From Antedon mediterranea (lineage: Eukaryota; Animalia; Echinodermata), in assembly GCF_964355755.1 (NCBI RefSeq), contig NC_092673.1, forward strand, positions 10,168,001-10,232,000: a DNA stretch of 64,000 nt, read 5' to 3'. The position numbers and the translations under genes were made by a program. Shown in pieces: positions 7,200-64,000 of the stretch. The stretch's first letter is position 1. Every line of letters starts with the position of its first letter. The notes below the pieces were generated by a model. The model was not told the DNA's origin. It saw only the letters and a program-made list of their open reading frames with translations, and did no database searches.

Positions 7200-7880
7200 A
7201 TTTACAACGCTGTATTTGACAAAGTTATGTGGTTCGATCATCGTCCAAAAATCAAAATGTCTTGGTGAGAGTGTCAAGGTTGGTGAAGGTCGGTAGCTCG
7301 ACCGATTCTGAAAGAATGAGTGTTAAACTGTGTATGTTCCAGACTAGCATGGCGAGCTAATTGTTTATAGCATTAGTGTGTGTTCTGCGGCCTTGGAGAC
7401 TACTGCTTCACTGGCTCTGAGGCATGCGAAGTAACATATTATGAACAAGGCTCTGTATAGGATGAATTCGTATTTGGATTTCATGCTACCTCGCATATGT
7501 CCAATTAGCGTTACAAGAATGTCGGAAGTGACCGGCGGTCTGATCGGTTTGGATGGAGAGTTCGTTTTTTGTTTCGCTACTCCTCTGCATAAATTGCTGA
7601 CTGCTGGATTTGCGGTAAGGTCTTCCATAAATGATACCCTGTGCACGAATGACACTGGGCTAAGGTAGTTTCGAATCGTGGAAATCGCCAGTGCATTTTT
7701 AGTCAGCTTACTTACATAGAGAACAATTGTCTGTGGAGTCGCTGGTAGCGGAAGGCTTAGTGATTTCCCGAATTGGTTAAAATGGTGCCATTTGCTTTTA
7801 TAGTTACTAGCGGTTCATTTACTTAATGAGTTCCACATTAGCTCTCGTGTGAGGATCTTGAGTTGTTTAGTGGTTCGAAG
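7200..7880 (-). pseudogene. Tyrosine recombinase of the retroelement, internally deleted
   Basis: STIRNYLS; RPPVT; YFACLRASE (box I Arg); FNTHSFRIGRAT (HxxR); GR*S in place of GRWS. Contains stops and a deletion between boxes I and II. Confidence 0.88.
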
Positions 7881-9200
7881 TAGATTGGTTGTAAGTGCTT
7901 TGGTATCTTTAGCGGTGTGCGGTTCATACTGTGCTCCTCTAGCATGGCCTCCGTTTCCTGAAAACGAGAAAGAGCGTCACATATCCTGTTTTGCTTACCA
8001 GGGATGTGCCTGGCTGTAAACTGAATGTTGTTTAGTAGTAACAAAAGGACGATAGCGCGAACCACTCTCATGACCTTTTCGTTTGATGACAATTTTTTGT
8101 TAAGCACATATACATCAGCTAGGTTATCACAGTGGAAAACTACATGGGTGTTGGCTAGCTGTTTTGCAAAAATCGAAAGCATGACATAGATGGGGTAAAT
8201 TTCGAGAACCATGATGTCGAACATTTTCCAAGTTTCCGGCCAGTGGCCTTGAATCCAGAACTTTTGGAAGGTCGCACCAAGTGCGGTTTTTGAGGCATCA
8301 GAGGAGAAATGTAAACGCTGCGAGTCAAATTTTTGTGGGGGTGAAAAATGGTAACGCCATTGTGTTTGCTAAGAAAGTCGGCCCAAATTTGGAGATCCTC
8401 CTTTGCTGAGTCAGAAAGGTGAATAGTTGAAAAGGGGTTAGTTAGACCGGCCGTTAGGGCATTAAGCCTTCTTAGGAACGCCAGTCCAGAGGGTATAACC
8501 CAGGTGGCAAATTGTAGCTTTTCAAAGAGATTGGGGGGCTCTCAATGTAGTTCAGTGAAGTTTTGAACTTTAAAGGGAGTAACGTAATTTTATTATCTCA
8601 GATGGAAGCCTGTCTTACATTTTCTGTAAATCAAGTTCAATACCCAGGAAGGAAATGGTGGTGGTGGGTGAAATTGTTTTGTGCGGTGCTAGAGGTATGC
8701 CACCGCGGTCAGCAAGCGCCTTGGATATCTTCAAGGAGTTCGCACACAGTTGGTGTGTGTCTTCAATGACGAGGATATCGTCTAATATTTTCACGTTATT
8801 GGGCTGTTTTAACTTTTTTATAAGGAAAAATTTCACTCCGTCAGAAAACTTATTGAATATTTGCCACGAAGATCCGCCGCCTTGGGGAAGCGTTTTATCG
8901 TAGTAATACTGGCCTAACCACGTGAAACCTGTGAGGTGATATTGGCATGGCCTCCGTTTCCTGAGTGGGATGTAAATGTATTAGTCTGTATGCGTCACTG
9001 GTGTCCGTCTTGGCCATGAATGCCGGGTGATTGTGTATGTCAATTATGTCTATTGCGTTGGCAATTGTTTCGTAATGAACTGTTATGCAAAACCCAGGGA
9101 TGTTGTGATTGACAGCGTTTGAGTCGTAGGGATAGGAGAGGTTGTGGAGGATACGACATTTTTCAGGTACGGAATTTCCGGAAGGTTGTTGATGATAGCT
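7838..9200 (-). pseudogene. Reverse transcriptase / RNase H of the retroelement, frameshifted
   Basis: KCRILHNLSYP; MAKTDTSDAYRLI; YDKTLPQG; ILDDILV; FLGIELD; SSDAS; LEIYPI; FHCDN; HIPGKQNRICDALSR. Confidence 0.9.
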
Positions 9201-9249
9201 TGGGAGTTAGTTGCTGTAAAAGCAGCCCCATGTAAGGTAGAAGCCATGA

Positions 9250-10030
9250 GCGAAACATAGGGTTAAGTAAGCGTGGTGTTTGTAACCAGATAGGAGTGCG
9301 CTTATTCTAGTGGGAATTATTGGGATCCCGAGCACTGAAAAACGAGTGGCGATACTGACAGTTTGTCTGGACACATCTATTGAATCTGTTATGGTAGGAG
9401 GAGCCGAGTGGACGCTCCACGGTTGGATGGGTTAGAGGTTTATGGTTAGCTCGTTGCGTCTAGTTTATGCAGGAGGTCGGCTCGAACCGATGACCAAGAG
9501 CAAAGTGTGTACTCAGTAGCCATTCGAAATTATCAGTCGTAAAAGTACCATTAATTTGGATGACTGCGCATGAGGTATTTAATATACTTAAAATAATTAA
9601 GATGTCCTGCGTATATTTACTTAAATAAAATTGTGGCAAAGTCGTGAAAGGCCTAGTGCCAGTTGTGTTCGTTTAAGATGCGGCATTTGGGCTTAGGCAC
9701 AAGTTCAAAGGTACCAGTGAACGTTGGCGTCAAAGCTTCCGCTGCGCTGTTGAAGTCGAGCAGATTGTGCAGCTCGATGAATTTGTGGGAGATTATTTTC
9801 TCTTTAAGTTTTTGACAAGGTAGGGGGTTTGAGGAAGAGAGCTGCCGGTAGGTTCGGCTTAGCGACATTAATCTCAACCACAAAAGTTACCAGGGTTTCG
9901 ACGATATGCCTCATGTCCTTTAATTCTTATTTATGTCAAATTCAGGTACTGGCACAATTCTTTTTTTTTTTTTTTTTTGGTGCCGTATTTTTTACCTCTT
10001 GTTAGTTCTTTTCCGTCCTGACATGGTGTA
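9250..10030 (-). pseudogene. Gag-like ORF1 remnant of the retroelement
   Basis: KLKEKIISHKFIELHNLL resembles DIRS-order gag; Cys/His knuckle remnant NRCVQTNCQYRH near 9345-9385; multiple frameshifts. Confidence 0.6.
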
Positions 10031-51005: not shown

Positions 51006-53313
51006 AATAGTCTATTTATATGAAATGAATGATCAATCAATGAAAAATAATGCCATGGAACTTTGTTTCTGATTTTAAAAAAGGTCCACTTGTTTAGGCC
51101 TGACATTTACAACCCTCAAAATATCTCACTTTCAAAAACAATATTTATTTTCTATTAAAAAAAAAAGAAAAAAGATATTCGTAGAGGTTCGAACCCACTA
51201 CTGCGAGAACTCAAACCTGAGCATTACCGGTTACGCCATAAACCAGTAGATGACAGAAGAGCTGATAACAGTCTATTTATATGAAATGAATGATCAATCA
51301 ATGAAAAATAATGCCATGCAACTTTTTTTCTGATTGAAAAAAATGTCCACTTGTTTAGGCCTGACATTTACAACCCTCAAAATATCTCACTTTCAAAAAA
51401 AATATTTATTTTCAATTTAAAAAAAAGGGAAAAGAAATATCCCTAGAGGTTTGAACCCACTACTGCGAGCACTGAAACTTGAGCATTTCAAAAACAATAT
51501 TTATTTTAAATAAAAAAAAAAAAAAAAAAAAAAATATCGGTAGAGGTTCGAACCCACTAGCTTAGTGAGAGCACTCAAACTTGAGCATTACCCGTTACGC
51601 CACAAACCAGTAGATGACTGAAGAGCTGATAATAGTCTATTTATATGAAATTAATGATCCATCAATGTAAAATGATGTTATGCAACTTTGTTTCTGATTT
51701 AAAAAAAGGTCCACTTGGTTAGGCTTGACATTTAAAACCATACAAATATCTCACTTTCAAAAACAATATTTATTTAAAAAAAAAAAAAATGAAAAAAAAT
51801 ATTCCTAGAGGTTCGAACCCACTACTGAGAGAACTCAAATCTGAGCATTACCGGTTACGCCACAAACCAGTAGATGAGTGAAGAGCTGATAATAGTCTAT
51901 TTATATGAAATGAATTATCCATCAATGTAAAATGATGTTATGCAACTTTGTTTCTGATTTAAAAAAAGGTCCACTTGTTTAGGCCTGACATTTACAACCC
52001 TCAAAATATCTCACTTTCAAAAACAATATTTATTTTCAATTTAAAAAAAAAAAGAAAAAAAATATCCCTAGAGGTTCGAACCCACTACTGAGAGAACTCA
52101 AACCTGAGCATTACCGGTTACGCCACAAACCAGTAGATGAGTGAAGAGCTGATAATATTCTATTTATATGAAATGAATAATAAATCAATGTAAAATGATG
52201 TTATGCAACTTTGTTTCTGATTTAAAAAAAGGTCCACTTGGTTAGGCTTGACATTTAAAACCATAAAAATATCTCCCTTTAAAAAACAATATTTATTTTC
52301 AAATAAAAAAAAAAGAAAAAAATATCCCTAGAAGTTTGAACCCACTATTGAAATCACTCAAACCTGACCATTACCCGTGACGCCGCAAACCAGTATATGA
52401 CTGAAGAGCTGATAATAGTCTATTTATATGAAATGAATGATCAATCAATGAAAAATAATGCCATGCAACTTTGTTTCTGATTTTAAAAAAGGTTCACTTG
52501 TTTAGGCCTGACAGTTGCAACCCTCAAAATATCTCACTTTCAAAAACAATATTTATTTTCAATTAAAAAATAAAGAAAAAAAATACCTGTATAGGTTCGA
52601 ACCCACTACTGAGAGCACTCAAACCTGAGCATTACTCGTTACGCCACAAACCAGTAGATGATTGAGGAGCTGATAATAGTCTATTTATATGAAATGAATG
52701 ATCAATCAATGAAAAATAATGCCATGCAACTTTGTTTCTGATTTTAAAAAAGGTCCACTTGTTTAGGCCTGACATTTACAACACTCAAAATATCTCACTT
52801 TCAAAAACAATATTTATTTTCAATTAAAAAAAAAAAATATCCGTAGACGTTCGAACCCACTAGTGAGAGCACTCAAACTTGAGCATTACCCGTTACGCCA
52901 CAAACCAGTAGATGACTGAAGAGCTGATAATACTCTATTTATATGAAATGAATGATCAATCAATGAAAAACAATGCCATGCAACTTTGTTTCTGATTTAA
53001 AAAAAGGTCCACTTGTTTAGGCCTGACATTTACAACACTCAAAATATCTCACTTTCAAAAACAATATTTATTTTCAATTTAAAAAAAAGAAAGAAAAAAA
53101 AAATTCGTAGAGGTTCGAACCCACTACTGCGAGAACTCAAACCTGAGCACTACCAGTTACGCCAAAAACCAGTAGATGAGTGAAGAGCTGATAATAGTCT
53201 ATTTATATGAAATGCATGATCAATCAATGAAAATAATGCCATGCAACTTTGTTTCTAATTTTAAAAAAGGTCCACTTGTTTAGGCCTGACATTTACAACC
53301 CTCAAAATATCTC
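51006..53313 (-). repeat. Tandem array of ~262-bp units, each with tRNA-type Pol III A and B boxes and an oligo-T run
   Basis: B-box-like GGTTCGAACC or variants at ~51186, 51448, 51545, 51810, 52073, 52333, 52594, 52848 and 53112; minus-strand A box TGGCGTAAC(C/G)G upstream in most units; T-runs ~10 nt downstream. Confidence 0.85.
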
Positions 53314-53350
53314 AGATATTATACATTTTTTTTTTGTTATCATGTTTTTG

Positions 53351-53364: not shown

Positions 53365-53428
53365 TTTTCTTTATTTTCATTCGTGGCTTTCAACATCGAC
53401 ATAACCTTGTCTCCTCTGTGCTGAAGGA

Positions 53429-54208
53429 ATGGAAGAAAGTTACTTTGAAGGCGAACCGTGGCTGACGAAACATCACAAACTCCTCACCACGTCCATGAAC
53501 CTGTCGGCGGTACTCGAAGCATTGGTCGTCAGAGAAATATACTTGCGGGAATTCGAGAACTTTGTACTGCGTATGGACAGAGAGAAAGGGGTTAAAGAGA
53601 ATCGGATGGCCTATTATCTCATCGACGACATTCGAAGGTATCCGAAATTGCACGCTAACGGAGCTTTCGTGGATTCTCTTAAATGCGCCGGCCACCACGA
53701 TCTTGTTGTCGCTTTGAGAAAAGGAGCGAAAACAACTTTGAACACGCCGTTCGAGAAAGATCATCCTTTTTCTTCCTTCAAGTCGGCGATGGTCCGTCTT
53801 TCGCACTACGAAATCGATCAAACATACAAGAAACGATTGCGAGAGAGGAACGTTCTTCTGAAACGCATCGACCGGTTCGCTGAAACGATAAATCTGGAGG
53901 CCACCGTCAAACAAATGGTGGTCAGAAGAATTTACAAACCCGAATACGCAAATTTCCTCCTCGACGGTGACAGACAGAGAAACGTTTACTTTTTCCTCAA
54001 CAACGTTCGGAAGCATCAAGACGAGTCCGGTTACAAAGCTTTCGTCGAGTCTCTCAAAGCAACCGGTCAACACGAACTCGCATCGACTTTGGAGAAAAAA
54101 AAATACAAAAAGAAAAAACAGTCTGTCGAAGTTCCAGACTTCGGAATTTTGTCCGATCAAAAGGCGCAATGTTCGTGTATCTGGCACGTGTCAAGTATTC
54201 CAAGATAA
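53429..54208 (+). CDS. Tandem death-fold (2x CARD-like) protein, 259 aa, intact ORF
   Basis: Two ~90-aa internal repeats ending GAFVDSLKCAGHHDLVVAL and GYKAFVESLKATGQHELASTL, typical of CARD helices 5-6; basic C-terminal tail. Confidence 0.75.
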   Translation: MEESYFEGEPWLTKHHKLLTTSMNLSAVLEALVVREIYLREFENFVLRMDREKGVKENRMAYYLIDDIRRYPKLHANGAFVDSLKCAGHHDLVVALRKGAKTTLNTPFEKDHPFSSFKSAMVRLSHYEIDQTYKKRLRERNVLLKRIDRFAETINLEATVKQMVVRRIYKPEYANFLLDGDRQRNVYFFLNNVRKHQDESGYKAFVESLKATGQHELASTLEKKKYKKKKQSVEVPDFGILSDQKAQCSCIWHVSSIPR

Positions 54209-56464
54209 ACGGAAAGTTGTACCTCTACGGCAGAGATCCGGAAGGAAACAGGCTGTCGTTGAAGACGAGGAAAGTGAAATTCACGTCGTACGTCGAAGAC
54301 GAAACGGACGGAGAATGCATCATGCGCAGAGGTGACGATCCAATTTCTTGCGCCAAGAAGTACAGGAGGCCCACGGCCGACGAAAGAAACGGCATCAAGG
54401 TCGACAACCTCTTCGGCAACCTCCCCTCGTCCGTGGGCGACCTGGACGCTCAGTGTGCGGTCGGGGTTCACGGATGCGCTTGGCACAGTTACTCCGAAGA
54501 CAAAGACGGCAACGTCGAAGGCTTGACGTACGACGAGCAGATCCACTTGGAACGACAGAACGTTCACCCGGTGCGACTGTCGGTGTTGTGCGTAGTTCTC
54601 AGGTGGGACGTGAACGGTCGAATAATTTCGGTGATGCTGTCCGACGGAAAGAGACTGCACGGCGAAAATGCGGAGATCGACACGCTGTCGGAAATCGCAA
54701 AGTCGATCGAATCTGCCGACGTGTTCGTGTATCACAGTGGTCGGGTCAAGGACAGCATCGTCGCCAGATGTCGGGTGTGCGAGGTACCCCTTGCCGTAGA
54801 CGGGTTCCCCGTGTGCTTGGACACTTCGAAACACGTACGGTCGCCGGCGGGCGGCGACAACGACTCCGTCTACGATTACGTACATCGGTTACGAATCTTG
54901 TCACGAGCTAGCGGCGAGCTAGTCGGCGAAGAAGCTAGACGACGACGTTTGCGTGCTGGAACGCTACGTGTCGGAGGTGGAAGCGAAAAAATTGGTCGAA
55001 ATCGAGACGAACTTGTCCAGAATAGTGGGAAGGTTCCCCAACGGATCGTCGACCGGCGTCCTTTCGTCGGTGCTGTGCAGAGAAGCGCAGCGTCAGCGTG
55101 TGGTGTTTCCGAGGAGCAATGCGGACCCGAAGCCCAAAGGAAGCGTCAACGAAGACGAAACGTGCAGAGGAGGCCTGGTGCTGGACACCGTGTCCGGTAT
55201 TCACAGAGACGTCGACGTGTACGACTTTCAGTTTTGCTATCCGAGGTTCATCATCGACAAAAACGTGGACAAGTCGACGGCTCTCGAAGACGGCTCTTTC
55301 GTCGACGCCGAAGTACGCGAAGGTCTGCTTCCGTCCGTCATGAAAAGACTGGTGTCGGCTAGAGAACAAAAAAACATCACTCCCCAGAACTCCGCCGTGT
55401 ACAAACAAGCGGCCAACGCATGCGTCGGATTTCTGTGCACGTCTGGCAAGAAAAGCCTTTACAACCACGTGACGGAAAAGTGCAGGGAACAACTGAACGC
55501 GCTAAAAAATTGCGCCGAAGAAAACGGTGCTCGGGTGCTGTACGGCGACACCGACTCGTTGTTTTTGGACATAGTTCCAGGCGGGAGACAGGAGCTGGAA
55601 GAGCAATTCGCCCGAGTCTTGGGCGAAAGAAGCTTTCAAAGGTTCAAACACAGGGAGACGCTTTGCGGCTTGCTGCTGACGGACAAGAAGAAAAGGTATG
55701 CGTGTCTCCATGCCGACGGGAGGGTGAGCACCACAGGGATGACGAGGCCCGGCGTCGAAAAATTCGCGTCTCGACTGGAACAGGTCATGATCGACATAGC
55801 CTTGAGGATCGGAGATAGCAATACGGCGGCCGACCGTTGCGTAAAAGAATTTTGTCGAGTCGTCAACGAACTGAAGGACGACGAAGCGATCGAGGTCCAA
55901 GGCGTTGTTCGAAAGGGCAAAAACGAGACGAACTCTCACAGATTCAAAAAGAGTTGCGCCGCCCTCGGATGCTACAGACAGACGCCTTACCACCTGAAAC
56001 ACGGAGGCGTTTCCTATCATCCGCTGTCGCATTCGTGCATCCATCCGACCGTGGAAGTCGAGCACTTGATCCGAGAGCTGAAACAATTTTGCGAACTCGA
56101 CAGAAGCAACGTTTTGAGCGTAATCGTTTGGAACGCGGAAGCAGGGGACTGCCGAACGAGCATATTGCATCGGTTGAAGGAGATCAAAGATACTTTGGAA
56201 AAGATTCCGACGCACCTGCCCCGGAAGGAGATGCAGCTCTGCGGAGGGTGGAATTTGTTCAGTGGCAGTTGCTGTTCCACGGTGAAGGTGTCGACCGCCG
56301 AAGAAGAGCGACAGGTTAGAAAAAACGAACCGGTCTTTCGAAGCGTAGATCTCGAAAACGGGGAGAGGAGATTATTCATCGTAAGATGTACAAACGCTTT
56401 GTGTTGCGACGCACACCGATTCTGGGGAAAGGCATGGAACTACACAGCAAAAGATGAAGCGTAA
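54169..56464 (+). pseudogene. polB: Family B DNA polymerase (RNA-primed type, ~765 aa) split by one frameshift near 54880-54925
   Basis: LYLYGRDPEG N-terminal motif; GGLVL; motif A DFQFCYP; GLLPSVMKRLV; motif B KQAANACVG; motif C YGDTDSLF; KKKRYAC. Confidence 0.9.
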
Positions 56465-56469
56465 AATAA

Positions 56470-56560
56470 TCCAAAAAAAATAAAAAAATAAATAAAAAAT
56501 AGTTTTAAGTCTACTTTTGAAATAAAAGAAAAAAAGAAATGGTTGAAGGAAATAAAAACA
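56470..56560 (+). terminator. A-rich spacer between convergent genes with several AATAAA polyadenylation signals
   Basis: Multiple AATAAA hexamers right after the polB stop codon. Confidence 0.45.
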
Positions 56561-56617
56561 CAAAAACCAAAAATATTGTTTAACAGTTTTTCTTGTATTC
56601 TTTTGTTTGTCAATTTG

Positions 56618-57805
56618 TCAAAGTATTGCGCATCCGCAAATCACGGTCACGTCCAGATCTTTTACGCCGAGCAGTAGATTCCCTGAAACAAACGACGAAT
56701 CGAGAAATTTGGGTGGTCGTTCGTCGATCTCGTCGTTCATGCATCGTTTCAACCACTTCCTTCTTATCTTGTTTTCGTCAACGGCGAGATCGTCTTCGAC
56801 AGGCTCTAGGTGTTCTCCTAGAAAAAGCGAAATCACCTTTTCCTTGCATTTCCTGTCCGTTTCGTGCAACACGGTCGATTCGGTTATGCAAGAAGGCAAC
56901 GTGGTCCCGGTCGCTCTCAACCGTTTCCAAACGCTTGGCAGGAACACGTCCGAGTCCGTCGTGAAAGCGGTGTGTCTTTCTTTGACCTCGGTGAGTAGCC
57001 TCAGAGGACGGACGAATTAGGCCGAGACGGAATTGAAATATTTTCCGTACGCCCACCAGTCTCTCAACGGGTTCGTTGCTTCTTCCACAACGTCCTCGAC
57101 GAATTCGAAGAATTCCACTTCCGCCAACTCGAAATTCAGGATGCTTTCCGTCGTTTGCGATCCTTCGAAAACAAGACGGGAAGATCTATCGGCCAGACCT
57201 ACCATCAGTCGTTGCGAGGTTTCCAGGGTTAAAAGGGCAGAGAAGAAGTCTGCGTTAAGCCATCCGATCTGGCGTCTGTCGTGCCCGACGAACATCGGAG
57301 GTGGGCCCAAATGCACGCCGCTTCTGCCTACGCCACCTTCCGTCTCGGCCAAATTGTCGAGGCAGGTTTCGACTGCGCAAGCGACGTTCTTCGGACACAA
57401 CGGTAGCGATCTGTTGTACGACAGACACAGATGCCTCAATATTATCATCAGAAGCTCGAAGTAAGGGTTGTCGGATCCGTAACGCCTTCCGTCGAAGTAC
57501 CACTGGAACGTTGGAGAGGGGTTGCCGCTTCTCACAAACACGCTCCAATCGTCCAGAGACTGTAGAGTTCGGGAAAGCGTCGTGTAGTCTGTGTAATCTT
57601 CGATTTTAGTCAACCAGAGACGACCGGTCAGATAACGCCTTCCGTAATCGTTGCCCTCCTCACCGCCACCGTCGTCGTCGTAGTCGTCGTAGTCGTACGA
57701 CTTGAAATGTCTAGGGTCGACTGTCATTATCTTTGACCACCTGACCTGCACGGCAGGTTGAGGCAATCCCAACTTCAACACCGGTCTCTCTTTGAACAAG
57801 TCCAT
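56618..57805 (-). pseudogene. BRO1/BROX-like domain protein (~395 aa) with one in-frame TAA at 57019-57017
   Basis: ORFs 57017..57880 and 56618..56947 share a frame and are separated by a single stop; likely start MDLFKE at 57805. PTFQWYFDGRRYGSDNPYFELLMII resembles the Bro1 F-x-W...D-x-x-FE motif. Confidence 0.5.
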
Positions 57806-57911
57806 AAGAAAGATTCTTGTGAAACATAACAACAACAACAACAACAACAACAACAATAAAAAAATAAATAAAAAACACATATATGTATATAAATTTCAAT
57901 TTCCTTTTATT

Positions 57912-58139
57912 TCAAACGACCATCATTTTCTTAAATTTAGAAGATAAAGTATTTTCACTTTCTGCTTTGCAATCTATCAATCTCTCTATTTTGTCGATCA
58001 CTTCGCATAAGTCTTTTTTGTTTTTTTCATCCACATCGCCGTCGTTGCCACTGTGTTGCTTTTTTTTTTTAAGGCGTAGCACTTTCAGAACCCTTTCCAC
58101 GTGGAAGACCGGCATTTCGATGTATATGTTTGTGCTCAT
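57912..58139 (-). CDS. Small basic/coiled-coil hypothetical protein, 75 aa
   Basis: ATG in good Kozak context; GC-richer core between AT-rich spacers; KKKK possible NLS. Confidence 0.45.
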   Translation of the reverse strand: MSTNIYIEMPVFHVERVLKVLRLKKKKQHSGNDGDVDEKNKKDLCEVIDKIERLIDCKAESENTLSSKFKKMMVV

Positions 58140-58613
58140 TCTTGTGTTGTTTTTTTTCCACTTTCTTTTCTCCTTTTCTGTGAATTTTGTAAATATTATT
58201 CTTTTCTTCCAAGTCTATTTCTGTATTAATATACTGTAAAATGTTACTATTTAATCAGTTATAGTTGGTTTTCTAAAATGTTTTTTTTTTTGCCCCTGCC
58301 TATTTCGAGTCGTTTTTCTCCGTCTGGAAAGAATCGCCAGCTTTTTCGGCATGATTCCTTAGTCCGTTATTACTTGTAAAACAATCTTTCTTCTTTTTTT
58401 TTTCTTTTCGGACTCTTCTTCGTCCACGACCTCGACAGGTTCAGCAACATTTCCAACGTTCTGAAAGTTCTGAAAGGCCTTGATCGGTCGTCTTCTCATC
58501 TACAAAGAAGAGTTTCTAAAGTCCAAATACTTGATCTTAATGTTTTTCACAGGTAAGAACTCATCGGGAGAATCTGATATTACAAAAAAAAAAAAAAAAA
58601 AAAAAAAATTTTT

Positions 58614-59365
58614 TCACTTTGTGACGTACCGTTTTCGTTTGCAACCGGACCTTTTGCAGCAGATCGGACGGTTCGACGGACTTATCTCCAGCAGTGTTCG
58701 ATCGTTCAACGGTTCGCCACAATCCAGCTCCTCTGCAATGCACTTTCGGGACAGTTCTGAATCGAATTTGTCGACGTGCCTTAATATCATGTCGAGGAAC
58801 GTGCGACCGGTTTGCTAGAGAGAAGCGACCGTCTGAAACTGAGTGTTGCAGCAAAGCGAAGGAGAAAACAACTGGAACTTTCTCGCTCGTCCGTCCACGT
58901 GGTACGGGATGGTGAACTTGACCGACGGAAACAGATCGTTGCTGTCGACCGTCAAAGATTCTAAAAGCTTAAGTCGTTCGACTACGTCCAGCACGCCGTA
59001 CATCCTACCTGCATGGTTCAGGTTGTTTGTCGAAATGTGCATAGGTACGCTCTTGTATTTTCTCTTATCGCCTGTTGCAGTTGGTAGTTGAGCGAAGTTT
59101 TCGTTCTCACGTTGAAGTTACCCCTCGTCGTGATGTTCGTCTATCCTGTGGAAACGAAATACAGCGCGGTCGATCCTCTTTTCAGAGGCGATTGAAATTC
59201 TATCATGTCGTCTTGCAATTTCGTGCCCCTCATGTGGATGGATTGCGCCGTCTCGCGCGTGTCGTACGGATATCGATGCACGATGTTTTGCGAAGACACC
59301 ACGTTCACCAGGAAGAAGTTCATCGACGCTCTGTTGCAACTGGATTGAACGGTTGTGTACGTCAT
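58614..59365 (-). pseudogene. Divergent TATA-binding-protein-like gene (two stops, one frameshift)
   Basis: Reconstructed LVNVVSSQNI...STALYFVSTG*TNIT...ISTNNLNHAG...NDLFPSVKF...KFQLFS...TFLDMIL is collinear with both TBP saddle repeats. Confidence 0.65.
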
Positions 59366-60057
59366 GATTGTTTCGTATTTTTCCTCGCCGTCTGTTGCAA
59401 TCGGGGTGGTTTTTTCACACCTTTTTTCAGAACCTGGATCCTCCGGATGCTGTTGTCCACCTTCACCAGCACGTCTCCGTTGGAGGTGCGTTGATGTTCC
59501 GAAAACATGGAGGCCAGAGACTGACGTTCCCGGTCGTTGTACGTGGCAAACACGACCGTTTCTGCGAATAACGACAGCAGATCGAGCGCCGATGTGAGGA
59601 ACGACATCGGCAGATCGGGAGCGTCGACCATGAGCTCCACGTGATCGACAAAGGTGGTTTTCGCCGCTTGTCCTTTTTCGTTCTGTAACCGTCGAACCTT
59701 AAAGTCTCCCACCACGATGCCCTCTTCTCTGTAGAGTAAGTGAACAAGGTTTTTCGTGGAAAACACCACCGCCAAACCGTCAAACGACTCGACTCTGGTC
59801 CTATGATCGCCTTAGTAGACGACGTCATCGACGTAAAACTTTCTCTTCTCCGGAATCGGGTTCAGGTTGTTCCTCAGCCGGTTCGTGAACCGTTCGCCGA
59901 GCACGTTCCGGAACCGATCCAACAAGGAAACGGGATCGGACGGCTTCGAGGAGAGAGCTTTGCAGATCCTCGGATCCGAGTTGATGTACGTGTACCAGAA
60001 CGTCGCCTCCTGTTCCGTCAGGCCGCCTCTCAGTTCCACCAGCTGCCGACAAAACAT
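59362..60057 (-). pseudogene. Hypothetical protein (~231 aa) with one in-frame stop at 59814-59812
   Basis: ORFs 59812..60057 and 59362..59775 are in the same frame; its stop overlaps the TBP-like start (ATGA). Confidence 0.6.
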
Positions 60058-60885
60058 TCAATTCACCAGGGAAAAAAAGTCATGCGCCCTCTATCGGTTG
60101 CTACCTTCAATATCTGCTCAGCGAAGCGTGCATAGTAACCGGAAGTGATGTTTTTTTCAAAACATTATTTCCGTAATCTTTAATCAACGAATGAGAAGCC
60201 TTCAAATTGTTTTTCTCATGAATAATTCATATTTAGTTGAAGATAAGGTATGGAAGAACCATGTGACGATCTCTTTTAAACGAAACGGCCATTTTAAGAC
60301 AGTCTAGTAAACCAACGATTTCGAGAGTAAGTTTTTAGATATTTAACAGTTTTTGAGGATCGTTTTTTTGTGTAATTTTGCACGCATATAAAATCAAAAC
60401 CTAATTTTTTAAGAAGTAAATGCAAACAAATATAATAACTATATACTATTTATATTTGTTACAAAAAAAATCACGCTGGTGTTATGTCCCATTTTTTTTT
60501 AAATGAAGCTGAAAATTGGTATATAATCCACGTGGTTAGTATTTCGGCCTAGCACTCTATATCACATGTCTAGGCCTAAACATAGGGCAAATCCAGCAGC
60601 AATGTAAATACGAAGTTCAAGATCAATAAAGAGACTTTGTATAAATATTAACATAATGTTATTATTGTAATTTTTATGCAATAATAATAAAAACATGTTA
60701 TATATAGGCCTTTTAGTCATAAACCATTATTATTACAATTATTATAGCCTACTAACTAAGATAATAGACCTCCAGGCCTAACCTAGTTAGACAATTATGT
60801 AGTAGGTATATTATTAATATAGTATAGACAATATAAAAAGGTTACTGTTTTGATCTGAGATTTTCACTAATTTTTGCCTACTATT

Positions 60886-63538
60886 TTATTTAAATTTCAG
60901 CTGCTTTCGGCTTTTTGGGTGTTCGACCTCCTTGATTATTTCAGGGACTGTGGACATGGTATGCGCTTTCATAATAGACGTCGTTCTTGAATTTTCATTA
61001 CGCATACCCCAAAATGACCGTTTCCTTCTGTTTATTGAGGCATGTATGGACTCTCCTCCCTGCTCTCCTAGCAGTCCTAACCCAACTCCCCACTTCTTAA
61101 TTGATGGCAGCACATGATCCTCAAGTAAATGGAGCTTAGGTGATATTCTCTCATTGTATTGGCGAAAGTGGTCCATAAAAGCCATTATTTTTTTCATCTG
61201 TATAAATATAAACGCAAATTATTTTAAATATAATTGATTACTTTTGTTCTTGTTCCAAAATTTTACAACTTGTAAAAAAATCTAGTTGATACATCTATAG
61301 TGGTTTGAAATAAAGAAAAATCATACCAATTGATTGAATGTCATCGGTTGTTAACACCCGGCAATGGTCAATACTGTTGTGTACTGCTGAATATTTAGAG
61401 AGTAAGTTTATGTATTTTACTTCAATCTCTGCTGCCTTCGCCATTATCAGTTGTCCCTTACTAATTGAAAAGAGATCTGCCTCTATACTGACCACTCTAG
61501 AAATGTTCTTGCATAGATCATCTATGACGTCAGACTTTTATTTAAAAAAAATTATAATACAGTATTGTAATAGTAGTAGTAATGTAAATAAGGATCATGT
61601 ATATAAAGAGGCCTACTACTATTATGTATTAGAATTAGAATACATAATTCTACATACAGTTAATGTGCATACCTTTAGTGCCTTGTGCACATGATTGCCA
61701 TTAAAAGATTTCCCATGAAATGGCTGTCGTTTAATACCATGATAATGGAGTGTCTGGTCCATAGATGCTACTATTGGACCAGTCCCAAACCTCAGTTGTA
61801 CGTCCATTTGCCTTTCCTATAGAAAAATACTTATGCAGGTAATTATGTTTGCTTTCATAGGTACAGAATAACCATGTGAGGTTCTAAGGCATCGATTTTT
61901 AGGGTAAGTAACAAGTAAAAACAAACAATATAATTATGAATGAAATATTGACGTACTGTTTCTGTCAACTCATCTTGAAGCTTTACTAGTTCATGCAATT
62001 GTTTAGACATTTTTGCCTTAGCATCCCCACTTTGATTTTTTAAATACAATAAAGGGATATCGTCTTCTATTTTCTCAATTTGTAGTAAAAGTTGATCTTT
62101 TTCTCTTGCCAATTCTGGAATTAAAAACAATTTAATTTATTTTTATTTATTTATTGAATTTTCTGCCATATACAATACAACGAAGACAAAACAAATATAA
62201 AAAGCAAGGAAAGACAACAAATAAAAACGAAAGGAGAGAATAAATAAATTATACCTTCTTGCTTCATAGCCACTGCCTTCACTAACTTATCAAACTTTGA
62301 TTTTGCTTGATCATCATCATAATCATCTTCTTCTGTACGATTTTTTCTTTTCATCAATATAGCAACATCCATTTTGTGGCATTCGCTTTCCAGCATCTCA
62401 TACAGTTTTTTGAATATCCCTAAAGAGATATGGAGGGTAGGGACGGACACCTGTAAAGATAATTATAAAAAAATACTTACGACATTTAAGATTATTTACT
62501 TGGTATTTAGAGTACAAGATAAAAATTACTTACTTGCTCAATTTCAATATCAATCATAGGCTCCCATATTACACTAAGTGATACATTCTTGGACATTTCC
62601 TTTTTCCCTCCATGTTCCTCAAATGCCTTTAAGTTTTCAGCCAATGACCTCAGTGTCCTACACTCTCCATTAATAGACTTTGTTTGCTGTTCCTCTTTGG
62701 ATTTTTTACAAAATAGGCAACAATACCGGCCTAAAACAAATATAATTTACTGTTAATATTATTTCACATTCTATTTTTTGTTTTGATAGAAAAAACATGT
62801 ATTGTTTTTTTATATTATGTTTTTTTACTACTTACAGTTTGGTCCATTGATTCCGTAGATTTTGATTAGAAAATCATAGTCACCAAAACAAAACATTCGC
62901 AGATTATACTCTCTGTGAAAGAAAAAAAATCCACATTTATAGATAAAGATAAGTGTATTTGTTACTCTGTTGTAATACATAGTATTTTATCCATGATAAA
63001 TGAAACAACATAACTACCTCCACTGTAGACCATTCAGTCCCATAACTTGCTCCGTCACTCTTGGTAATGTTTGCGACAAGTTATAGACGCTGTCCTTTGC
63101 ATGGAACATCAATACTACAACCACATTTCTGACTGCATTCGGATCAGCAACACTTACAATTTGTATTTCTGCCTTAAAACTCTCACCACCATGATCTCCG
63201 CCAAACTTCAGCCATATCTCATTGCCGTTGTATATTTTAAGTTTATTTTGCCTGTAAAATATAATAACATCGTTATTTTTTTTTGACAGGAACATACAAA
63301 ATGTGTGTACAGAATTGAGAAGATAAAATTATAAACTTACTGGCGGTACTCATCAAGGTAATTAAAAACCAAAGCCTTTATATCTGGTATGTGAACCACA
63401 GCTACCTCTTTCAAACTGAGACCTTCGTGCCGACTGGAATTAAACAACAGTAGCTCATTTTTTGATTTCAACTCGCAAAGCAGTTCCTTCTGGCATTCTC
63501 TCATCCTCTTCTCTGAAGGTATTAGTCCTGGAACATAC
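60886..63538 (-). CDS. Multi-exon Chapaev/CMC-like DDE transposase (RAG1/Transib-related fold); 5' part not resolved
   Basis: GGDHGGESFK; FGDYDFL; CCLFC; PTLHISLG; FNGNH; KLHLLEDH; GEQGGESIH. GT-AG exons approx. 63538-63341, 63251-63018, 62912-62836, 62730-62534, 62450-62255, 62114-61957, 61816-61673, 61534-61327 and 61197-60886; possible 1-bp homopolymer frameshift at the start of the last exon. Confidence 0.8.
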
Positions 63539-64000
63539 CTGAAAGTATAATAATATACTGTATATTTACAGTACTGTACTGTATATAATTGTTTATTCAT
63601 ATAAATACAGTAGGTATTACTTAAAGCTCAGGTACAGGCATGAATTTTAAATACAATATCTGGTTAATTGTACATAAATCAAATATTAGTAACAGAAATC
63701 AAGACGAAAAAACATGAATTTCCCTTAATATGGTCAAATACAAAATTTTGAAAAATTCTGCCATAAAAACCTGGAAGACTTTTTTTTCAGTAGTTAGGTA
63801 GTTTAACCTAATGTAATAACATATCTGGTGACTCCCTAGAAGGTGAAAAAAGATGGTGGATATACGGTGGATAATTTTTGCTATAGCATGAAAATAAAAA
63901 TCTGAAGTTGATTAAAAATACCAGAAATGTAAAATTCAAGTTATATTACCTATATTTAGTCATCTGATAACATTTTTTACCACACCGTTTATTTTTCATA

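Follow-up and report, generated by a model that had tools for sequence, protein, structure and literature searches.

A decayed gene in a virus-like block of Antedon mediterranea, with intact relatives predicted to fold as a TATA-binding-protein saddle

Virus-encoded versions of the TATA-binding protein (TBP) are already known from mirusviruses, nimaviruses, giant viruses, and beta/gamma-herpesviruses. According to the accessible parts of the respective papers, TBP is encoded by 59% of mirusvirus genomes (PMC10132985) and by nimaviruses, where it corresponds to wsv303 (PMC10871703). The accessible part of a paper on KSHV ORF24 (PMC12529657) describes a TBP fold with an Asn-rich polar face, a Phe-Pro motif, and a C-terminal addition, lacking the acidic residues for TFIIB, and, together with the accessible part of PMC12197705, indicates that the beta/gamma-herpesvirus late factor recruits polymerase without relying on the canonical contact with TFIIB. 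Moreover, divergent Herpesvirales-related regions are reported from the genomes of starfish and ribbon worms (10.1101/2025.04.19.649669). What is new here is a further TBP-like family, its conserved C-terminal tail, and its connection with an ORF of an alloherpesvirus, on none of which anything was found in a literature search that covered papers outside subscription access.

The member of this family that opened the analysis lies in a 64,000-nucleotide stretch of A. mediterranea DNA (referred to as the window), and is most likely the decayed remnant of a promoter-recognition factor from an unclassified large nuclear DNA virus, a reading that leans on the modelled fold of an intact relative. 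The gene runs on the minus strand from a start ATG at 59365 to a terminal TGA at 58616–58614, and is broken by a TAG at 59143–59141, a frameshift at about 59066–59063, and another TAG at 58817–58815. The sequence-only reading had joined the two pieces on either side of the frameshift (59066–59365 with the first TAG, and 58614–59063 with the second) into a single gene, and tblastn bore this out. Residues 5–99 of the full-length, 258-residue relative P0004 map to 59350–59066 (frame –1, 77% identity) and its residues 102–258 to 59063–58617 (frame –3, 64% identity), with a combined E of 6e-94, while P0005 and P0006 show the same two-piece mapping. Since the intact P0004 spans both pieces in order, they constitute one gene, the first piece encoding lobe 1 and the second encoding lobe 2, a conserved helical tail, and a basic end. 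All the motifs quoted in the sequence-only reading are present in the window sequence, with one correction: the first TAG had been repaired to Lys to give STGK, and since the four closest intact relatives have another residue in this column, the STGK part of the TBP motif match is spurious. The window's own copy is most likely non-functional.

Relatives were collected in successive searches. The second piece, with X at its stops, retrieved one relative (P0003) among 24 candidates, the cluster of which includes P0004; a further search added P0005 and P0006 (three matches among 190 candidates), and a wider one added P0007 (four matches among 3920 candidates). A profile of four sequences, run against 1.84 billion representatives, then yielded 22 matches at E≤0.001, from which P0024 and P0026 were excluded as short repeated matches. 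This left about 20 relatives of 93–531 residues from ENA, Logan, and JGI sources, located on contigs of 1 kb to 5 Mb. No real name was found among the cluster members examined for ten relatives. NCBIfam matched none of four family proteins, PHROGs gave just two weak matches for P0004 (E 0.09 and 0.36), the ESM Atlas returned nothing usable for P0003 or P0004, and queries with the family and its neighbour genes found no relative among IMG/VR viral contigs. A family tree of 29 rows (26 of them different), from which P0011 was excluded as too short, resolved three groups, with P0004 in a short group of 240-residue proteins (support 99/99, in a tree for which the tool flags long branches). The family thus escapes Pfam (see below), NCBIfam, and PHROGs, with no fetched member bearing a name, and probably flags large DNA viruses of an as yet unclassified group, copies of which are left in eukaryote assemblies.

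The fold was assessed on P0004 and carried over to the window copy via its identity to this modelled relative, while a single-sequence fold of P0003 was discarded (pLDDT 29). The AlphaFold2 model of P0004, built from a 30-row alignment, reached a pLDDT of 81.4 and a pTM of 0.75 (five models at 78–81), and consists of two consecutive sheet-and-helix lobes (residues 13–101, i.e., the part covered by the first window piece, and 106–203) followed by helices at 211–224 and 230–247; within lobe 1, confidence drops to a pLDDT of about 50 at residues 31–50. Foldseek comparison of this model with the PDB found its best match at E 1.1e-7 and 44 in total at E≤0.001; the 40 of these that were listed are all TBP-containing entries, among them 3eik, which we take to be a TBP entry. 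The first non-TBP row followed at E 1.2e-3 with a TMq of 0.24. An independent aligner (VIA) was run over 48,161 chains, of which only five reached Z≥8, each of them TBP (Z 12.8, 12.6, 12.3, 11.3, and 11.3, with the next chain at 6.7), in alignments of about 170 residues at an rmsd of 3.2–3.6 (3.5 for the best chain) that extend over model residues 11–208 and therefore both lobes. The two-fold saddle that the sequence-only reading had singled out as support for its TBP call, i.e., a sheet with helices behind it in each of two lobes, is thus found in the P0004 model by AlphaFold2, Foldseek, and VIA alike. The intact relatives are accordingly predicted with good confidence to fold as a two-lobed TBP saddle, with two extra C-terminal helices predicted beyond it.

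This agreement is not mirrored in sequence. The Pfam TBP profile (PF00352), which had been proposed as another check, matched none of 23 family sequences, and TBP was absent from the results of PDB sequence searches with family queries, in which rows at E 0.1–1.4 were treated as chance and disregarded. In hhalign, lobe 2 aligns with archaeal TBP in the expected register, yet when a 20-row family alignment was compared with 54 archaeal TBPs (mostly from halophiles and methanogens and without eukaryotic TBP, making this a narrow test) 22 of 50 column shuffles equalled or bettered the score. Likewise, no sequence repeat was found between lobe 1 and lobe 2 (28 of 50 shuffles equal or better). Borderline hhalign signals seen with a four-row alignment (0, 2, and 0 of 60 shuffles) were discounted, since they mostly vanished with 20 rows (22, 1, and 21 of 50 shuffles). 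The call of a TBP homolog is therefore upheld by predicted fold and not by the Pfam and hhalign sequence comparisons, the motif resemblance by itself falling short of significance in hhalign.

Family equivalents of the TBP residues that contact DNA were set by motif spacing and secondary structure, without superposition, and were partly picked as TBP-like, so the following counts (non-gap rows of alignment A6, P0004 numbering) should be read within that motif-based register. The archaeal TBP residues N12, F42, F59, N103, F135-P136, F152, and T160 are each at least 95% conserved. In the family, the central Asn pair is invariant (N20 in 24/24 and N115 in 29/29), as are F69 (the second Phe of repeat 1; 26/26), T78 (27/27), and the Phe-Pro motif (F150 and P151, both 29/29), against a background in which 22 of 198 columns are conserved at 90% or more. 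Position 175 is aromatic in all 30 rows (Y in 22, F in 8), position 183 varies (T in 17, L in 9, S in 4), and position 49, the first intercalating Phe site, is occupied by F in 10, S in 7, L in 6, and P in 2 of 25 rows. The intercalating sites hence comprise two invariant Phe, one Phe/Tyr, and one variable residue. The loss of repeat-1 Phe residues noted in the sequence-only reading consequently holds for the first site, which is non-aromatic in the window's clade, but not for the invariant second. N117, Q173, N182, and Q184 are further invariant polar residues, and the window pieces retain the family's conserved TBP-motif residues. The two Glu preceding Phe-Pro that form the acidic TFIIB stirrup occur in all 53 archaeal TBPs scored and in none of 29 family rows. 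What had been described as a Cys/basic C-terminal extension can be divided into a helical tail common to the whole family (C217 and E221 both 29/29, D210 28/30, L228 28/29), and a distinct basic end, which P0005–P0007 lack and which has a basic patch as its aligned counterpart in the longer members.

The gene is embedded in a virus-like block (53400–60150; GC 0.486, CpG o/e 1.44) that differs in composition from its right flank (GC about 0.3, CpG o/e 0.56). Directly upstream of it, on the same strand, lies the C-terminal part of a kinase gene (59362–60150), which contains stops, lacks its N-terminal catalytic part, and corresponds to residues 286–385 of a 533-residue Pkinase ORF on L001, an 8.4-kb metagenome contig (Smith-Waterman score of 95 versus a maximum of 65 in 500 shuffles). 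On L001 this Pkinase ORF extends into the beginning of the TBP-like gene that encodes P0006, and the kinase-then-TBP order is thus common to the window and L001 at 42% protein identity; convergent with the P0006 gene, the contig also holds a secreted-type zinc metalloprotease gene (7603–8292, minus strand; Peptidase_M10, E 6e-6). On the plus strand of the window, a family B DNA polymerase (PolB) gene is split over two frames (54169–56464; PF00136 at E 1.5e-14, with PolB matches in the PDB). It is compact (about 765 codons) with degenerate motifs, and its best PDB matches are archaeal PolB. An unknown gene that is probably one ORF (56618–57880, minus strand, with an in-frame stop at 57019–57017) had no match in Pfam, NCBIfam, PHROGs, or IMG/VR. 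The block also contains a plus-strand ORF with a weak CARD-like match (53405–54208; PF16739, E 0.0033, under the curated cut-off), which is intact at 267 residues, has its CARD_2 match near the end, and possibly comprises two death-fold units; contigs of two public runs (X8 and X9) omit about 550 bases of it.

Parts of the window were found in nine public runs from three organisms and four studies, and contigs of three of the four runs compared cover much of the block; one (X1) spans 60023–60933 and joins the kinase remnant to the AT-rich flank. The locus accordingly displays the features of an endogenous viral element, i.e., PolB, a shift in composition, satellite-rich flanks, a contig crossing the right side, and several broken genes, and the viral origin proposed in the sequence-only reading gains support from PolB, the composition, the kinase synteny with L001, and the best viral fold match (see below). 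No capsid, terminase, or portal gene of the HK97-type set was recognised in the approximately 7-kb block, and no capsid or packaging gene in the window. No shared promoter box was seen upstream of four genes (with TATATA preceding two), and TATTWAA was absent upstream of these four in the 7-kb block and the 8.4-kb L001. Elsewhere in the window we noted a 27-kb satellite (21616–49025) in which a purine-rich unit of 19 bases recurs about 1368 times, a 260-base repeat present in seven copies that abut the block's left end (51486–53314), broken coding sequence on the host side that matches DUF1280 (60886–63627, minus strand; E 9e-13), and decayed coding-like sequence (7300–9900, minus strand) that presumably resembles a DIRS-type retrotransposon. 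The composition, the satellites, and the DUF1280 relic suggest an animal host.

Since the relatives are predicted to fold like TBP, the source virus likely steered the host transcription machinery with its own version of this protein. We consider it probable that the locus is a broken gene of an integrated large DNA virus whose saddle-folded relatives bound viral promoters and recruited host RNA polymerase II. The intact viral protein would bind an AT-rich box in viral promoters through the minor groove and bend it, and host RNA polymerase II could be brought in by partner proteins of the virus or by the tail, in place of the usual contact with TFIIB, with a possible role in late-gene expression. 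Nevertheless, TBP-like folds serve other jobs too, as illustrated by the VETF-like subunits in BFVD. In an alternative reading, the viral protein has the TBP fold but no part in promoter selection, and serves either to engage host TBP partners as a decoy or to scaffold a viral complex. This would agree with the variable first Phe site, the absent TFIIB stirrup, and the low confidence with which lobe 1 is modelled, and TRF2-type paralogs exist that do not bind TATA. The invariant columns cluster at the motifs of TBP's DNA-binding underside, for which a decoy has no need, and we regard this alternative as rather unlikely.

Less probable still is an origin of the gene from a mobile element that is not a virus, or from a host TBP paralog under fast evolution. 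The lack of a capsid gene in the window, the lack of relatives among IMG/VR viral contigs, and the presence of some relatives on megabase contigs all fit such an origin, whereas the gene is intronless and tightly packed with PolB and the kinase, its order is repeated on L001, its composition differs from that of the flanks, its identity to cellular TBP is only 12–16% in structural alignments, and other relatives lie on contigs of 35–198 kb (P0028 on one of 144 kb, P0043 on 178 kb, and P0019 on 198 kb). Similarly improbable is that the breaks are assembly errors in a gene that is intact in the organism, which would leave the TBP call unaffected and change only its description as decayed. Long homopolymer runs occur near the gene, and the X1 and X8 contigs show small indels relative to the window in the gene and its neighbours. 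However, stop codons account for two of the three breaks, PolB and the unknown ORF are broken as well, as is the kinase, which also lacks its front part, and the public runs have only 0.26–0.63 of words in common with the window, indicating that they carry other copies. A decayed viral promoter-recognition factor remains the most likely reading.

As to the virus from which this factor came, the best match of the P0004 model in BFVD (32 matches at E≤0.001) is ORF75 of Ranid herpesvirus 2 (Q14W31; E 3.3e-9, TMq 0.59), which we take to be an alloherpesvirus. The margin is small, with the next match at E 4.6e-8, and after ORF75 come TBP-type proteins of giant viruses and herpesviruses. ORF75 is entered only under that name, without a function, and shares 16% identity with P0004 over 244 aligned columns; since this exceeds the roughly 195 typical of cellular TBP, the match may take in the tail. 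In comparison with ORF75, no 440-residue protein was present among the 22 family profile matches. The literature searched contained no TBP-like protein of allo- or malacoherpesviruses (the supplement of PMC13030845 may list one), and "TBP" and "TATA" do not occur in the accessible main texts of PMC13030845 and PMC11565193. The fold match thus points to a putative unannotated TBP-fold protein in a frog herpesvirus. Nonetheless, not one of the 44 PDB matches of PolB is a herpesvirus enzyme, which speaks against a close herpes link, and a herpes-like origin of the source virus stands at roughly even odds. A more specific and tentative possibility, rather doubtful at present, is that the family and ORF75-type proteins form one lineage of compact, tailed TBPs of undescribed herpes-like invertebrate viruses. 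If true, the TBP-based promoter switch would long predate the beta/gamma late complex and extend much more widely across Herpesvirales, with the 240-residue proteins as its minimal form. The family bears on how ancient the late-gene switch of herpesviruses may be, and a compact TBP without a stirrup offers a simple system in which to study the redirection of RNA polymerase II by viruses.

Compared with the described systems, the family has the saddle in common with cellular TBP (yeast 7o4i_O, human 5fur_A, and Sulfolobus 1mp9_B; Z 12.3–12.8 over about 170 residues), as well as the paired Asn, Phe-Pro, and Thr motifs. It differs from cellular TBP in its low identity (12–13%), in having no profile match, no acidic stirrup, and no sequence repeat, in its variable first and often Tyr-occupied fourth Phe site, and in its two extra conserved helices. 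The TBPs of mirusviruses, nucleocytoviruses, and nimaviruses are virus-encoded too, although no sequence link from them to the family was found, and the named TBP-type proteins of giant viruses are weaker fold matches (TMq ≤0.50). Among beta/gamma-herpesvirus proteins, BFVD fold matches were obtained with EEHV4 U58 (E 4.5e-5), a gammaherpesvirus UL87-domain protein (E 1.8e-4), and BcRF1 (E 2.6e-3), and the family's N117, Q173, N182, and Q184 are reminiscent of the Asn-rich face that the accessible part of PMC12529657 describes for KSHV ORF24. KSHV ORF24 requires all four Phe, in contrast to the variable first site of the family. Finally, the beta/gamma-herpesvirus TBPs (KSHV ORF24, EBV BcRF1, and HCMV UL87) are proteins of 570–1000 residues that have an N-terminal polymerase-binding domain and act with five partners, whereas the present proteins span 230–530 residues and have their saddle N-terminal or nearly so (from residue 11–13 of 258 in P0004, which has no N-terminal Pol II-binding domain), and are accompanied by neither such partners nor a TATT box in the 7-kb block and the 8.4-kb L001.
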